Below are positions 8,626 to 40,370 of a stretch of DNA of 43,527 nt, piece by piece (position 1 is the first letter of the stretch; every line of letters begins with the position of its first letter). Under the pieces are notes generated by a model, which had not been told where the DNA came from, did no database searches, and saw only the letters and a program-made list of their open reading frames with translations. Position numbers and translations under genes: made by a program. This DNA is from Planctomycetaceae bacterium (lineage in GTDB: Bacteria; Planctomycetota; Planctomycetia; Pirellulales; UBA1268), in assembly GCA_027486095.1 (NCBI GenBank), contig JAIXPT010000440.1, positions 1 through 43,527 on the forward strand, in the 5' to 3' direction.

Positions 8626-8716
8626 GCTATACAAGGTTTACAAACCGTTTGCGTACGGCACGACTTATTGCGTTTCCATGAATACTCCTTGCATACATTA
8701 GCAAACGTTCTATATT
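8626..8716 (+). promoter_or_regulatory. Promoter region of the DUF1559 operon with GntR-type boxes
   Basis: AT-rich. GCTATACAAG (8626-8635) and TTGCATACAT (8689-8698); candidate -35 TTGCAT (8689) and -10 TATATT (8711), 16-bp spacer. Confidence 0.5.
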
Positions 8717-8776
8717 TATTCGCAGAGGGCGAGCGCGGTGGTAGTGGCACTTGGAACTGGCGCGGGGAGCGGAGCC

Positions 8777-9943
8777 ATGAGCAGGCTGGAGCGGCCGGGA
8801 GATGGGGAAAAGCGGTGGTGCGGCTTGGGCCGGCGATCTCTTCCGGGTTTCACCCTCGTGGAACTGCTTGTCGTGATCGCCATCATCGGCGTGCTCGTGG
8901 GCCTCTTGCTGCCCGCGGTGCAGGCGGCGCGGGAATCGTCCCGGCGGAGTTCGTGCTCGAACAATCTGCGCCAGATGAGCCTCGGCGTGCTCAATTTCGA
9001 ATCGGCCAAGGGCCGGTTTCCAGCGGGGCTGCGGGATCCTTTCTTTCTCACGGTCGGCAGTACGCCGACCTACCTCACGAATCGCGCCCGGTTCAGCTTC
9101 ATCACACTGATTCTACCCTTCATGGAAGAGGTGGCGCTCGGCGATCAAATCACGTCGTATCTCAAGGCAAGCGGGAACGCGGCCCCATGGAACACGGGGC
9201 CCTTGGGTGGGATCGGTTCGCCATTCGTCGTTCAGCCCAAAGCCCTGCTCTGCCCCTCGGAGCGGACGGTCTTCACCAATGCGGCGGAAGCGAGGCCGAC
9301 GAGCTACCGTTGCAACCGCGGCGACATCTTCACGGCCTCGGATCTAAAGTATCAAAGGCGGGGGCCGTTTGGTACCGGCTTCGACCGAGACACCTACTCG
9401 TTGACGCCGATCAAGGTCGCTGCCATCCCCGATGGCTTGTCGAAGACGGTGATGCTCGGCGAAGTGATCCTGGGAGATCTGTCTTCGTCACGCAGCGCGG
9501 GCACCGGTCTGCAGGCGTCGCTCGCCTCGACGGATGCTCCCGGCACCTGCGCGAGCCTGCTTGCGACCGATCAATACAATCCCGTCTTCGGCGTCGGTTT
9601 CAACGATCGGACGGCGGGCCGAAAGTGGGGCGATTCACTGGTCTTCTACACGGGGTTCAACACCGCGACGGGTCCAAACACACCACGGTGTGGCGCCAGC
9701 GAGAACCTTCACATCGTGCCGGTGAGCAGCTACCACGCCGCGGGAGCGCAGGTTTCGATGTGTGATGGAAGTGTGCGATTCATCTCGGATTCAATCGACG
9801 CGGGTGATCCGACCGTGGCTCAGCCCAGCGTGACGACGGATGCCGGCACGGGCGTCCAGTTTTACACGGGCCCGAGTCTCCGCGGCGTGTGGGGCGCGAT
9901 GGGGACGATCGCGGGCAGCGAGCCAATCGCCACCGGAGAATGA
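8777..9943 (+). CDS. DUF1559 prepilin-type N-terminal cleavage/methylation protein with H-X9-DG motif
   Basis: [65 protein letters not shown]. Confidence 0.95.
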   Translation: MSRLERPGDGEKRWCGLGRRSLPGFTLVELLVVIAIIGVLVGLLLPAVQAARESSRRSSCSNNLRQMSLGVLNFESAKGRFPAGLRDPFFLTVGSTPTYLTNRARFSFITLILPFMEEVALGDQITSYLKASGNAAPWNTGPLGGIGSPFVVQPKALLCPSERTVFTNAAEARPTSYRCNRGDIFTASDLKYQRRGPFGTGFDRDTYSLTPIKVAAIPDGLSKTVMLGEVILGDLSSSRSAGTGLQASLASTDAPGTCASLLATDQYNPVFGVGFNDRTAGRKWGDSLVFYTGFNTATGPNTPRCGASENLHIVPVSSYHAAGAQVSMCDGSVRFISDSIDAGDPTVAQPSVTTDAGTGVQFYTGPSLRGVWGAMGTIAGSEPIATGE

Positions 9944-10008
9944 TCGGCCCAGCGGCGTGTGGCTCCGGCCGCCGCGGTCAAGTGTTCATCACCATGGAGG
10001 ATTCAACC

Positions 10009-10512
10009 GTGTCCGGAAACCTGCCGCAGGATGGCGGTCGTTGGGTTCGATTCGTCGTCGCGGCGACGATCTTGGTCGGTGTGGTCGGGTGCGGCACCTC
10101 GGGCCCAGACACCCAGGCCGTTCAAGGGACCGTCACCATCGACGGCGCACCGCTCGAAGGCGCCACGGTCTATTTTTCACCGACGGGTTCGGGAGGCGCG
10201 CCGGCAGCGGGACAGACCGGATCCGGTGGAGTCTTCCGCCTGACGACGGTGGTCGCCGGAGCGCGGGGTGGCGGTGGGGCGGTGGCGGGCGACTATGCTG
10301 TGGTGATCCAAAAACGCGAGATGCCGGCCGTGGCCGAACTCTCCACGGATGATCCGCGCTACGGCGGCGACCGGCCCTCCACGGAGTCATCGAAGGCGAT
10401 CAAGGAGCTCGTGCCGGTGGTCTACGGCGATGCCAAGACATCGCCCCTCCAGGCGACCGTAAAAAAAGGCGTGAATGCGTTCACGTTCGAGATCGAATCG
10501 AAGGGGAAATGA
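10009..10512 (+). CDS. Lipoprotein with carboxypeptidase-regulatory-like fold (usual DUF1559 partner)
   Basis: GTG start after GGAGG; lipobox VVGC; VQGTVTIDGAPLEGATVYF...GAVAGDYAV...VPVVY...SPL...GVNAFTFEI. Confidence 0.85.
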   Translation: MSGNLPQDGGRWVRFVVAATILVGVVGCGTSGPDTQAVQGTVTIDGAPLEGATVYFSPTGSGGAPAAGQTGSGGVFRLTTVVAGARGGGGAVAGDYAVVIQKREMPAVAELSTDDPRYGGDRPSTESSKAIKELVPVVYGDAKTSPLQATVKKGVNAFTFEIESKGK

Positions 10513-39086: not shown

Positions 39087-39461
39087 TCAGTCGATCGGCC
39101 GACTTCCGCCCGATGTCGAGCCACGGGTCAACAGAGGAACGGCGGCGAAACCGGCCAAGACTGCACAGGCGCCCGCAGCCACAGCGACGCCGCCGCCCCG
39201 CGTCGCCCCCCACACATTCTGCGTCGCCGCCATCGCCACGACGATCGGGATATACATGCCCGCCCAGTAGCCGACTCCCATCTCGAATGCCGGGGTGGCG
39301 AGCCCACGACGCCGAACGCCGGCCATGCCGAGCATCAGTGCCACCATCGCGACACCGACGCCCCCGATGTCACTGTCGATGCCGAGCCACTGCGCGAGAA
39401 AAAATCCGAGGCAGCGGCCCAGCAGCACGCACGCAGCCAGAAGCACCGTACCCCACACCAT
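39087..39461 (-). CDS. madL: Malonate transporter subunit MadL
   Basis: MVWGTVLLAAC, LGIDSDIGGVGVAM, YWAGMYIPIVVAMAATQNV; directly upstream of madM. Confidence 0.92.
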   Translation of the reverse strand: MVWGTVLLAACVLLGRCLGFFLAQWLGIDSDIGGVGVAMVALMLGMAGVRRRGLATPAFEMGVGYWAGMYIPIVVAMAATQNVWGATRGGGVAVAAGACAVLAGFAAVPLLTRGSTSGGSRPID

Positions 39462-39545
39462 CGGATTCAGTCCTCAACGGTCTGACAAACCGCTCGCGAT
39501 CTACCCGACCGCCTGGGAAGTGAAAATCTTTCGTAAGGCGACCGA

Positions 39546-40262
39546 TCAGCGACGTGCCCGCTTCGACGCCCGCCGCTTCGCCGGCGTGTTCGCTTCGTGC
39601 ATGAGCGCGAGCGATGCCACGAGATCGCCATACCGCTCCCCCTGCACGATCACGTGGCTTCGCAGCCGCTGCGCCGCGAGTTCGCCATCACCCTCGGCCA
39701 GGGCATCGACGATCGCCTGATGCTCTGAATAGGAGTTTTTCAAGCGGTTGCGCAGCCGCAACTGCAGCCGGCGGTAGGGCCGCAGCCGGCGCTGGAGCGA
39801 CGAGGCCTGCTCGACCAGGAATGCATTGTGGCTGGCCGCGTAGATCAGGCGGTGGAAGTCTTCGTTATGTGCGAAGTAGTCGTCGATGCTTGCGGAGTCG
39901 CGGGCCTCCTCGCACCGCTCGTGGACGGCGGCGAGGGCGGCGTGCTCCTCGTCGGTCATGCGGCGGGCCGCCAGGCGGCCGCACATCGCCTCCAGTTCCG
40001 CCATCACCTCGAACATCTCGCACAGGCGATGCGGGCTCATCTCGGCCACGATCGCGCCCCGGCGCGGCCTGAGATCGATCATCCCCGAGGAACTGAGCTG
40101 GATGAGGGTCTCGCGGATCGGCGTGCGCGACACGCCAAACTCCTTCGCGAGCGCCACCTCGTCGAGCCGCGTGCCCGGGGCATAGGTGCCATCGACGATC
40201 CGCTCTTCGAGGGTTTCGCGGACGGCATGGGAACGCTTGGGGGCGACACGGGGGGCGGGCAC
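39546..40262 (-). CDS. GntR family regulator with FCD domain (MatR-like by context)
   Basis: GTG start at 40262 with AGGAGA RBS; wHTH PGTRLDEVALAKEFGVSRTPIRE; FCD NEDFHRLI...EHQAIV..L. Confidence 0.93.
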   Translation of the reverse strand: MPAPRVAPKRSHAVRETLEERIVDGTYAPGTRLDEVALAKEFGVSRTPIRETLIQLSSSGMIDLRPRRGAIVAEMSPHRLCEMFEVMAELEAMCGRLAARRMTDEEHAALAAVHERCEEARDSASIDDYFAHNEDFHRLIYAASHNAFLVEQASSLQRRLRPYRRLQLRLRNRLKNSYSEHQAIVDALAEGDGELAAQRLRSHVIVQGERYGDLVASLALMHEANTPAKRRASKRARR

Positions 40263-40360
40263 GGTGTGAATCTCCTGAGGCGGCACAGACCGGCCGTCAG
40301 GATATAGCGACACTGGCGAGATGGCAGGGGCGATCACACACAAGCTCCCGTGAGCCTAAA

Positions 40361-40370
40361 GTGTATACGA
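40361..40370. promoter_or_regulatory. GntR-type box upstream of the GntR-madLM unit (autoregulation candidate)
   Basis: GTGTATACGA; 9/10 identical to the reverse complement of the 21334 box. Confidence 0.55.

Follow-up and report, generated by a model that had tools for sequence, protein, structure and literature searches.

A probable malonate-responsive GntR/FCD regulon reaching esterase, glycan and surface-protein genes in a planctomycete

Introduction

The closest described counterparts of the system presented here include two regulators of bacterial malonate catabolism. MatR of Rhizobium leguminosarum bv. trifolii (matRABC) was reportedly found by Lee and colleagues in 2000 to bind and repress, with malonate relieving the repression, and is said to leave a footprint of about 66 nt. 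MdcY of Acinetobacter calcoaceticus is the repressor of the mdc operon for malonate decarboxylase, in which the MdcL/MdcM carrier is also encoded, and its operator is said to be ATTGTATACAAT. Suvorova, Ravcheev and Gelfand reportedly described proteobacterial MatR/MdcY regulons in 2012 that include TRAP transporters and consist of transport and malonate catabolism genes only. Another paper places MdcY among the FadR-subfamily groups with a 2-nt distance between GT and AC (PMC4494728).

A GntR-family repressor has likewise been tied to polymer-degradation and uptake genes, namely the alginate regulator of Zobellia galactanivorans (PMC7641319); it differs from the present one in subfamily member, motif and effector, and the likeness is functional only. 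DUF1559 proteins, two of which are encoded at our locus, form the largest paralogue family of Planctopirus limnophila with 68 copies and have no known function (PMC10632474). The regulator and the operator type described below are already known from Proteobacteria, and the mechanism as such is ordinary; what is new is that the regulon apparently extends to glycan, esterase and DUF1559 genes. Among the matches listed, a literature text search for the box string returned unrelated papers only, and a search on MatR, malonate and the matA operator returned nothing on the operator.

Results

The window, i.e. the whole 43,527-nt stretch of DNA analysed, belongs to a 3.77 Mb Planctomycetaceae assembly. 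It encodes a GntR/FCD regulator at 39546..40262 on the minus strand, whose GTG start at 40262 was set by alignment of four orthologues, and which joins an N-terminal GntR winged helix (PF00392, 4.5e-17) to a C-terminal FCD domain (PF07729, 3e-31). In R. leguminosarum bv. trifolii (CP007068.1), a regulator of 216 aa that is encoded divergently from matA-matB-matC, and which we take to be the published MatR, is 55% identical to the window protein (E 2e-83), in an alignment that spans 206 of the latter's 238 residues and includes the FCD domain. The intergenic region between that regulator and matA carries TCTTGTATACACGA, which bears out the MatR operator core named in the first-pass annotation; the core shared by the two systems is TTGTATACA. 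In both, the regulator is linked to genes for malonyl-CoA synthetase, a decarboxylase and a carrier, the decarboxylase being found in the islands of relatives. Unlike in the MatR system, gntR of the window is in an operon with madLM and not divergent from matABC, matA was not found in the assembly, and boxes are located before genes for esterases, glycoside hydrolases, PATR/PEP-CTERM proteins and DUF1559 proteins as well, in an organism of the phylum Planctomycetota. With MdcY, the regulator has in common the FadR subfamily, the 2-nt GT..AC spacing (PMC4494728 for MdcY) and linkage to a MadL/MadM-type carrier, whereas the window is without mdc decarboxylase genes. Domains, kinship to a matABC-linked regulator, operator core and linkage to malonate genes all identify the protein as MatR/MdcY-type and a MatR orthologue; names among the 120 homologues listed are the generic 'GntR family' and one 'McbR'.

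All nine decamers listed in the first-pass annotation (starting at 8626, 8689, 21334, 26041, 26063, 32970, 37380, 37401 and 40361) were found, and each is intergenic, as was claimed; the site at 21334 precedes the likely ATG at 21295 by 40 nt, and that at 32970 lies between two co-directional genes. Shuffled sequence would be expected to contain 0.55 copies of GTATAC; the window has four, a number that 0 of 100 shuffles reached. The assembly is 77% complete, which leaves about a quarter of the genome out of all genome-wide counts; it contains 93 copies of GTATAC, about 30 of them intergenic, and 20 intergenic copies of TATACA/TGTATA, five of which are in the window. Intergenic regions, as defined by our own crude gene calls (4,052 of 403,546 intergenic bases are in the window), were scored with a weight matrix derived from 80 sites that lie upstream of gntR homologues, all of them in genomes other than the present one. 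Matches scoring at least 15 number three genome-wide and all fall in the window, at 40363 (20.0, the best of the genome), 37382 (15.5, the second) and 26043 (15.2). At a score of at least 6, the window holds six of 40 genome-wide matches, where 0.40 would be expected. The box at 26065 scores 9.2; the other five (8691, 6.8; 32972, 6.5; 37403, 4.8; 21336, 4.4; 8627, 1.7) are at background level when scored singly. Ten intergenic matches elsewhere in the assembly score 10.1-13.5 and were treated as background; none has a partner box, and a malonate link was absent from the genes checked beside three of them (pilin-like, TPR and Wzy-like).

An intergenic, perfect GTATAC with a partner of at most one mismatch at an offset of 21-22 is present three times genome-wide, each time in the window (21315/21336, 26043/26065 and 37382/37403). 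The latter two are the pairs at divergent promoters that had been pointed out before; the partner at 21315 had been overlooked. Pattern scans for box pairs in the window's genome and in the relatives G006, G011 and G015 gave totals close to those of reversed-pattern controls and added only known sites and a coding repeat on contig C260 of the window's assembly. The palindromic box is genuine and rare.

The box recurs far beyond this genome. In 76 of 80 homologous loci (59-94% identity; Planctomycetota, Betaproteobacteria and Desulfuromonadales/Geobacter; three phyla) GTATAC is found within 300 bp upstream of gntR, as part of a 14-16 bp palindrome with the consensus ATCTTGTATACAAGAT. Partner boxes with at most one mismatch cluster, among 78 distinct contexts, at offsets of -21 (n = 24), +21/+22 (n = 40), +42/+43 (n = 46) and -41 (n = 13), any other offset having n ≤ 2; the phasing first noticed in the window is thus seen family-wide. 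Since the box lies upstream of so many homologous gntR genes, we ascribe it to the GntR/FCD regulator, and the sequence comparisons support the view that a TTGTATACAA-like palindrome is the target of this protein, which would thereby control several units of the window. Rhodocyclales/Desulfuromonadales homologues (59-68% identity) have the same box with a divergent DctPQM transporter or MadLM, and an OAD-beta gene in one locus; the Pfam assignments for proteobacterial loci cover five genes from two loci.

G006, G011 and G015 belong to the same genus; they are close kin and not independent of one another, and some of the 80 loci may come from these same genomes. In these relatives, boxes scoring 15.7-23.5 precede gntR, DUF1559, PATR-GDSL, a ligase/esterase pair and unk201-GH2-unk10509, while the intergenic sequence around them is barely alignable. 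Their islands also hold matA/MCD (1.9e-90; in G015), MatC carriers (in G011 and G006) and, within the gntR operons of all three, BD-FAE esterases; a family III CoA-transferase and a 474-482 aa protein directly follow gntR. Malonyl-CoA decarboxylase (matA) was not found in the window's genome, G006 or G011 as assembled. DUF1559-type genes are downstream of a box in six of 11 planctomycete loci, and the boxes preceding those of G006 and G011 score 15.9-16.8. Among 16 genus genomes gntR is present in four, and both the ligase (the window's genome, G006 and G015) and unk201 in three, all of them gntR carriers. The GntR regulon proposed in the first-pass annotation therefore gains comparative support through the boxes before DUF1559, PATR/PEP-CTERM, ligase/esterase and unk201-GH2 orthologues, with the exception of its box at 8626, which is unsupported.

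Four regions are well-supported candidate members of the regulon. At the gntR promoter, the candidate primary operator (40358..40373, core GTATAC at 40363-40368) reads GTATACACT in the direction of gntR and overlaps TACACT, a hexamer resembling a -10 element; ATATTC at 40386-40391 is a weak partner with two mismatches. This box is kept in four genus members, the surrounding sequence being otherwise diverged. Downstream of gntR on the same strand are madL (39087-39461; Pfam MadL, 1e-32) and madM (38289-39077; Pfam MadM, 2.5e-99), together a malonate carrier (38289..39461). An RNA element in the gntR leader was also considered and rejected: a predicted hairpin over the ribosome-binding site is conserved, with compensatory change in only 2 of 19 pairs among four close sequences.

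The candidate operator pair at 37382..37408 (GTATAC 37382-37387 and GTCTAC 37403-37408, offset 21) lies between PATR-GDSL on the minus strand and an esterase on the plus strand, and a promoter scan places it on a minus-strand promoter-like site, TAGACA-17-TACTAT. Pfam searches identify a putative minus-strand operon (27742..37370; an 87-nt gap, then an overlap) of a giant PATR/GDSL-esterase protein (32988-37370), a PATR/PEP-CTERM protein (28824-32900) and a DUF1559 protein (27742-28851). The divergent BD-FAE/alpha-beta-hydrolase esterase (37448..38260, plus strand) starts with an ATG at 37448 after AGGAG. PATR-GDSL orthologues are preceded by boxes scoring 15.7 in G006 and 19.2 in G011. Between the two PATR genes are weak internal boxes (32951..32977; GTATTA at 32951 and GTATGC at 32972, offset 21); in G006, TGTATGCAA is found again at the equivalent position, accompanied by a two-mismatch partner at offset 21, and the box at 32970 is weak, though conserved in this one relative.

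The third region contains the pair at 26043..26070 (CTATAC 26043-26048 and GTATAC 26065-26070, offset 22), which is common to two divergent promoter-like sites, TATACA-16-TATACT (plus) and TATACA-18-TAGAAT (minus). The overlap of boxes with -35/-10 elements suggested earlier is borne out by the scan, in which the pairs coincide with such hexamers on both strands. On the plus side is a MatB-like (malonyl-CoA synthase-like) acyl-CoA ligase with a Pfam AMP-binding domain (26230..27729), which reaches 353 bits against the NCBIfam malonyl-CoA synthase subfamily, under the cut-off of 558 bits; its orthologues are preceded by boxes scoring 16.9 in G015 and 7.2 in G006. On the minus side, the unit 22812..26018 encodes, according to Pfam, a GH99/GH71-like protein (24765-26018) and two unknown proteins (24139-24768 and 22812-24155). 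In G015 a box is followed by a DUF1559 gene and then by the same three genes.

The fourth region carries the pair at 21315..21341 (GTGTAC 21315-21320 and GTATAC 21336-21341, offset 21) upstream of unk201, just downstream of a minus-strand promoter-like site, TTGACC-17-AACAAT (21384-21356). We accepted 21336, whose own score is just 4.4, because of its partner at 21315 and the arrangement in G006, where a box scoring 15.7 stands before the orthologue of unk201. A putative minus-strand operon (12824..21295; Pfam assignments, gene gaps of at most 39 nt) would comprise unk201 (20738-21295), galK (19555-20706), a Na/solute symporter (17922-19520), galM (16777-17901), galT (15691-16737), galE (14714-15694) and GH2 (12824-14689). 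The counterpart in G006 runs unk201-GH2-unk10509 and lacks gal genes, and the gal genes of relatives are located outside the island. Control of the gal genes, to which only operon structure points, may be incidental here; an internal promoter or the adjacent ROK regulator could drive them instead.

A further plus-strand unit, 8777..12803 (Pfam: DUF1559, 8777-9943; two unknowns, 9889-10512 and 10509-12803), possibly belongs to the regulon through one weak box. Upstream are GAATAC at 8680 (score -1.0) and GCATAC at 8691 with an offset of 11 (8680..8696); by our own reading, TTGCAT (8689-8694) and TATATT (8711-8716), separated by 16 nt, could serve as -35 and -10. G011 retains TTGCATACA at the orthologous position, with GAATAC and GCATAC 22 bp apart, and the box at 8689 is weak, though conserved in this one relative. 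The orthologue of unk10509 in G006 is inside the box-preceded unk201-GH2 operon. The CTATAC half-box at 8627..8632, which corresponds to the site at 8626, was rejected as an operator (score 1.7, not conserved in G011).

Discussion

We consider it probable, at roughly 0.8, that a MatR-type regulator and its boxes form a malonate-responsive regulon that spans esterase, glycan and surface-protein genes. It is hardly credible that the boxes are ordinary promoter elements, i.e. -35/-10 hexamers about 22 bp apart, and no repressor sites. The pairs do fit a sigma-70-like geometry and TATACT is a common -10-like hexamer with 61 intergenic copies (TAGACT has 56, TACACT 87), yet TATACA/TGTATA is rare, with a quarter of its intergenic copies in the window, and matches of at least 15 are confined to the window and not spread over many unrelated promoters. 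The refutation envisaged in the first-pass annotation, that the motif is a general -10 element, thus fails. Moreover, a 14-16 bp palindrome has been conserved in three phyla upstream of the genes of a single regulator family, arrays reach ±42 bp, past any promoter, and regulator and boxes co-occur among genus genomes. Binding by another factor, such as the ROK regulator (21438-22772) or an unlinked protein, is very improbable too: the ROK gene is directly upstream of the 21315/21336 pair and CAAAC-type palindromes next to two of the boxes are a hint of a second factor, but 76 of 80 loci have the box at their gntR promoter, a tblastn search with the window's ROK protein found no homologue in any of the 80, and the relatives' ROK gene is on other contigs beside galM, off the islands.

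A narrower regulon, in which control is limited to the actual malonate genes, gntR-madLM and the CoA ligase, and the boxes at PATR, DUF1559, esterase, glycoside hydrolase and gal genes are non-functional look-alikes or leftovers of promoter shuffling, would agree with known MatR/MdcY regulons, which are said to be limited to malonate genes and transporters, and with the background-level single scores at 21336, 37403, 32972, 8691 and 8627. We regard it as improbable given the second-best score of the genome at 37382, the strong boxes before PATR-GDSL (15.7-19.2) and DUF1559 genes (15.9-16.8) in G006 and G011, and the box before a DUF1559-type gene in six of 11 planctomycete loci despite diverged flanks. 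There is a somewhat larger, still small, chance that regulator and operators are right and the effector is another small acid or CoA ester released from the esterase substrate. The absence of matA from three genomes as assembled, the CoA-transferase and unknown 474-482 aa protein right after the relatives' gntR, and the ligase score under the malonyl-CoA synthase cut-off would favour this; MadLM in the window, MatC in G011 and G006, matA in G015 and the 55% identity to a matABC-linked regulator over 206 of 238 residues, FCD included, speak for malonate.

In the malonate-responsive regulon that we prefer, the product of 39546-40262, a MatR-type regulator belonging to the GntR/FadR subfamily (FCD), would bind as dimers to the palindrome TTGTATACAA with its GT-N2-AC core. 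Strong boxes flanked by weaker ones two helical turns (21-22 bp) away would place two or more dimers on one face of the DNA. As the boxes overlap -35, -10 or start regions, bound protein should block RNA polymerase, and the overlap with -35/-10-like hexamers points to malonate-relieved repression. Malonate or a close relative (e.g. methylmalonate) would, we infer, release the regulator from DNA and induce gntR-madLM, the MatB-like CoA ligase with the divergent GH99-like operon, the PATR-GDSL / PATR-PEP-CTERM / DUF1559 operon with the divergent esterase, the unk201-galK-symporter-galMTE-GH2 operon and perhaps the DUF1559 unit at 8777.

More tentatively, and with rather less than an even chance, the island might be what corresponds in planctomycetes to a polysaccharide utilisation locus, its substrate being a glycan or glycoside that contains galactose and is esterified with malonyl groups, with malonate as sentinel inducer. 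Surface-anchored PATR-GDSL and BD-FAE esterases would strip malonate off the substrate, MadLM (MatC in relatives) would import it, and free malonate would act via MatR to switch on esterases, GH2, GH99-like and unknown glycan-active proteins, together with galactose catabolism and DUF1559 pilin-like proteins. If true, members of the large DUF1559 family would for the first time have a defined inducer and a defined regulon.

The novelty lies in the gene set behind the boxes: giant PATR/PEP-CTERM surface proteins that contain esterase domains, along with glycoside hydrolases and DUF1559 proteins, would be tied to an inducer that is small, cheap and testable. Such a regulon, its effector being defined, would offer a way into studying some DUF1559 members. 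The family-wide 21-bp phasing suggests how MatR-type proteins may assemble on DNA, and the footprint of about 66 nt reported for MatR would fit three boxes 21 bp apart. As a minor observation, palindromes of the form CAAAC-N1-3-GTTTG adjoin two of the boxes.

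Identity of the regulator and its operator

Our analysis supports the reading proposed in the first-pass annotation, namely that a GntR regulator in the window controls several transcription units through GTATAC-type palindromes (boxes); the finding is real and the interpretation essentially right. The regulator gene (39546-40262, minus strand), which encodes 238 aa, has orthologues in three of the 15 other genomes of the genus, with 93% (G011), 91% (G015) and 77% (G006) identity. In all four genomes, the present assembly (G000) included, the block TTTCGTATACA(A/C)T is located about 100 nt upstream of a conserved GTG start, and beyond this block the sequence further upstream is unrelated among them. 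A wider scan identified 80 loci with homologues at 59-94% identity in Planctomycetota, Rhodocyclales and other Betaproteobacteria, and Desulfuromonadales/Geobacter. GTATAC was found within 300 bp upstream of the homologue in 76 of these 80 loci (exceptions: L049, L074, L079 and L111), counts that do not represent independent events since all compared genomes are kin and some of the loci are perhaps from the same genomes as our relatives. The consensus of the regulator-upstream sites is ATCTTGTATACAAGAT.

Using the malonyl-CoA decarboxylase of G015 as query, mat loci were found on plasmids, and the one examined, from Rhizobium leguminosarum bv. trifolii, encodes a 216-aa regulator divergent from matA-matB-matC. 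This protein is 55% identical to the regulator of the window (E 2e-83), and the intergenic region between it and matA contains cattcTTGTATACACGAtcg, in agreement with the MatR operator core given in the first-pass annotation. Based on this identity and on cattcTTGTATACACGAtcg, the regulator of the window is, at the sequence level, a MatR orthologue sharing the operator core. MatR is reported to bind this repeat and to act as a repressor that is relieved by malonate, and MdcY reportedly binds a similar 12-mer. Regulator and operator are of a known kind, the MatR/MdcY type. In PMC4494728, MdcY is listed among FadR-subfamily groups with GT and AC 2 nt apart, a distance that the GTATAC box likewise shows.

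At proteobacterial loci (L056, L063, L080 and others, from Rhodocyclales and Desulfuromonadales), homologues of the regulator are divergent from DctPQM TRAP transporters, with a gene for OAD-beta (Na+-decarboxylase beta subunit) next at L056; 11 loci encode MadLM in place of DctPQM. The leader of the regulator gene (40263-40362, minus) is conserved in the four genomes, and GCTATATCCTGACGGC...GCCGCCTCAGGAG can pair and cover the ribosome-binding site, with a compensatory change in just two of 19 predicted pairs.

Gene content of the window

The window corresponds to contig C247 of the assembly, which comprises 3.77 Mb in 456 contigs (67.5% G+C, 77% complete, 3.2% contaminated), and its placement within Planctomycetota was derived from gene content (DUF1559, PEP-CTERM and PATR proteins) and named homologous loci. 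Genes were called by a codon-usage score trained on long open frames of the assembly itself and named from Pfam and NCBIfam. On the plus strand, a P-type ATPase (6639-8588) is followed by a DUF1559 protein (8777-9943) and two hypothetical proteins up to 12803. GH2, galE, galT, galM, a Na/solute symporter, galK and the 185-aa protein unk201 form a one-strand run on the minus strand (12824-21295), where a ROK regulator (21438-22772) and two hypothetical proteins with a GH99/GH71-like protein (22812-26018) are also encoded. Further genes encode an acyl-CoA ligase similar to malonyl-CoA synthase (26230-27729, plus), DUF1559, PATR/PEP-CTERM and PATR/GDSL giant proteins (27742-37370, minus), a BD-FAE esterase (37448-38260, plus), and madM, madL and the GntR/FCD regulator (38289-40262, minus). 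An open frame of about 52 codons (40550-40708, plus), divergent from the regulator and with a start region conserved in G006, lies upstream of an aspartyl-protease-like gene (40829-42166).

Genomic rarity and spacing of the boxes

All nine decamers listed in the first-pass annotation were recovered at their positions. The window has four copies of GTATAC, where shuffles predict 0.55; the whole assembly has 93, of which about 30 are intergenic. Intergenic TATACA/TGTATA was found 20 times genome-wide, with five copies in the window, which holds 1% of the intergenic bases. The motif might have been a mere -10 element of TATACT type, a reading that fails, as the abundant -10-like hexamers TATACT, TAGACT and TACACT are spread genome-wide without the GTATAC palindrome. 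Intergenic-enriched -10-like hexamers fit TAnACT across the genome (intergenic copies: TATACT 61 of 91, TAGACT 56 of 98, TACACT 87 of 177), and TATAAT is rare (11 of 22 copies intergenic).

The assembly was scanned with a symmetric 16-bp matrix derived from 80 regulator-upstream sites (44 distinct sequences), all of them from genomes other than G000. The top match of the genome was 40363 (score 20.0), and the only other intergenic matches of at least 15 were 37382 (15.5) and 26043 (15.2), so that all three fall in the window. At a threshold of 6, six of 40 intergenic matches are in the window, compared with 0.40 expected. Site 26065 scored 9.2; sites 8691 (6.8), 32972 (6.5), 37403 (4.8), 21336 (4.4) and 8627 (1.7) are each, taken alone, at background level.

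When the genome was searched for a perfect GTATAC close to another hexamer with no more than one mismatch, exactly three intergenic pairs at an offset of 21-22 were found, all of them in the window: GTGTAC/GTATAC (21315/21336), CTATAC/GTATAC (26043/26065) and GTATAC/GTCTAC (37382/37403). The box at 21315 had previously been overlooked. In 78 distinct upstream contexts of regulator homologues, partners with at most one mismatch were counted at -21 (24), +21/+22 (40), +42/+43 (46) and -41 (13), with at most two at any remaining offset. The spacing of two helical turns noted earlier is a real property of these operators, because the 21-22 bp phasing holds across the whole regulator family. It would fit the MatR footprint, which is reportedly about 66 nt.

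Promoter overlap and proposed mechanism

A consensus promoter scan revealed -35/-10-like hexamers coinciding exactly with box pairs. TATACA-16-TATACT faces the ligase and TATACA-18-TAGAAT on the opposite strand faces the GH99-like operon, so that each of the boxes 26043 and 26065 would act as the -35 of one and the -10 of the other of two predicted promoters placed back to back. A promoter-like TAGACA-17-TACTAT points towards the PATR-GDSL gene, with the first ATG about 9 nt past the -10, and unk201 is preceded by TTGACC-17-AACAAT with the box pair just downstream. The regulator's own box, read in gene direction, is GTATACACT (GTATACAAT in three relatives) and includes a TACACT/TACAAT -10-like hexamer. 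Promoter occlusion is the classical mode of FadR-subfamily repressors. Because the box pairs overlap promoter-like hexamers, we propose that two or more dimers on one helix face would occlude RNA polymerase. The effector would be malonate, as suggested by MadLM, MatC, matA and the MatB-like ligase in the islands and by MatR orthology.

Conservation and extent of the proposed regulon

Genes and boxes were mapped on the relevant contigs of the three relatives, and genes without names were then named. In G011 the island is one 38.6 kb contig, where a box (score 23.5) lies between the regulator and a patatin-like gene; the regulator operon continues with a hypothetical 482-aa protein, BD-FAE esterase and family III CoA-transferase. 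Boxes with partners precede a DUF1559 gene (16.8) and a PATR-GDSL-like giant protein (19.2), and the gene immediately following the ATPase orthologue, for a CBM96/PEP-CTERM protein, has a weak pair (8.5/7.9, offset 22 bp) in front of it. In G015 one box (17.3) precedes the regulator, matA (malonyl-CoA decarboxylase, 1.9e-90), a hypothetical protein and BD-FAE esterase, and another (16.9) separates DUF1559, GH99-like and two hypothetical genes from ligase-esterase. In G006 boxes precede the regulator (19.8), DUF1559 (15.9) and the ligase (7.2), and one (15.7) lies between PATR-GDSL and unk201-GH2-unk10509, the last being the counterpart of the protein at 10509-12803. A MatC-type carrier gene is located just past DUF1559 on the opposite strand in both G011 and G006. 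The intergenic regions of the relatives barely align. Among the 16 genus genomes, the regulator, the ligase and unk201 are restricted to one group of four, in overlapping combinations. Among 11 more distant planctomycete loci, six have a gene with a DUF1559-type prepilin-like N-terminus that is preceded by a GTATAC box and, at 21 bp from it, a partner G(C/G/A)ATACA.

Known MatR/MdcY regulons are narrower, whereas the predicted planctomycete regulon also reaches esterases, glycoside hydrolases, PATR/PEP-CTERM giants and DUF1559 proteins. Of the readings that remain, the most interesting has the locus serve a malonyl-esterified glycan, with malonate as the signal; we consider it tentative, with a probability of roughly one in three.

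The membership of the gal genes was judged from the arrangement around unk201. The order in G006 is unk201-GH2-unk10509, and in G015 unk201 and GH2 share one open frame of 771-773 aa (G015:C1:29028-31343). In the window a galK-symporter-galMTE block is inserted between unk201 and GH2 (12824-21295). Since its gaps are at most 39 nt and the galK ATG (20706) has a GGAAGGAG site 31 nt past the unk201 stop, the gal genes are likely read through from the putative MatR-controlled promoter. They might instead be driven by an internal promoter or by the ROK protein; in the relatives the ROK, galM and galK genes are on other contigs.

Two boxes had been placed upstream of the DUF1559 unit at 8777. The one at 8691 (TTGCATACA) has been retained in G011 at the orthologous position behind the ATPase gene; its GAATAC partner there is 22 bp away (11 bp in G000). 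By eye, the box at 8691 overlaps a promoter-like TTGCAT-16-TATATT, 60 nt upstream of the ATG; this unit is possibly a regulon member. The box at 8627 was rejected as an operator given its poor score and absent conservation. The TGTATGCAA of site 32972 is found again in G006, at the matching position past the PATR-GDSL gene, and there too the partner box, 21 bp upstream, is poor. Because the site is internal to a presumed operon, control of the PATR/PEP-CTERM and DUF1559 genes further along would come from 37382 anyway.

Other repeated motifs

A second motif class, GTGTAC-N4-GTATAC(T), occurs in intergenic regions elsewhere in the assembly (C48:22674, C82:8500, C106:3580, C109:5124; also C109:6139, C325:11882, C296:368 and C431:327), with hexamers 10 bp apart and never at 21-bp spacing, and may represent either a promoter type or a site for a different regulator. 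The 24-mer GTATACGGTGTGCAAGCCCGTGTA, with three copies within 250 bp (G000:C260:4855-5106) and one in G011:C55, was set aside as an apparent coding tandem repeat unrelated to the operator. Five CAAAC-N1-3-GTTTG palindromes were found in the assembly. The two intergenic ones are both in the window (8641-8653 and 26048-26062) and directly adjoin a CTATACAA box, with GCAAAC again at 8701; a second factor could act at these palindromes.
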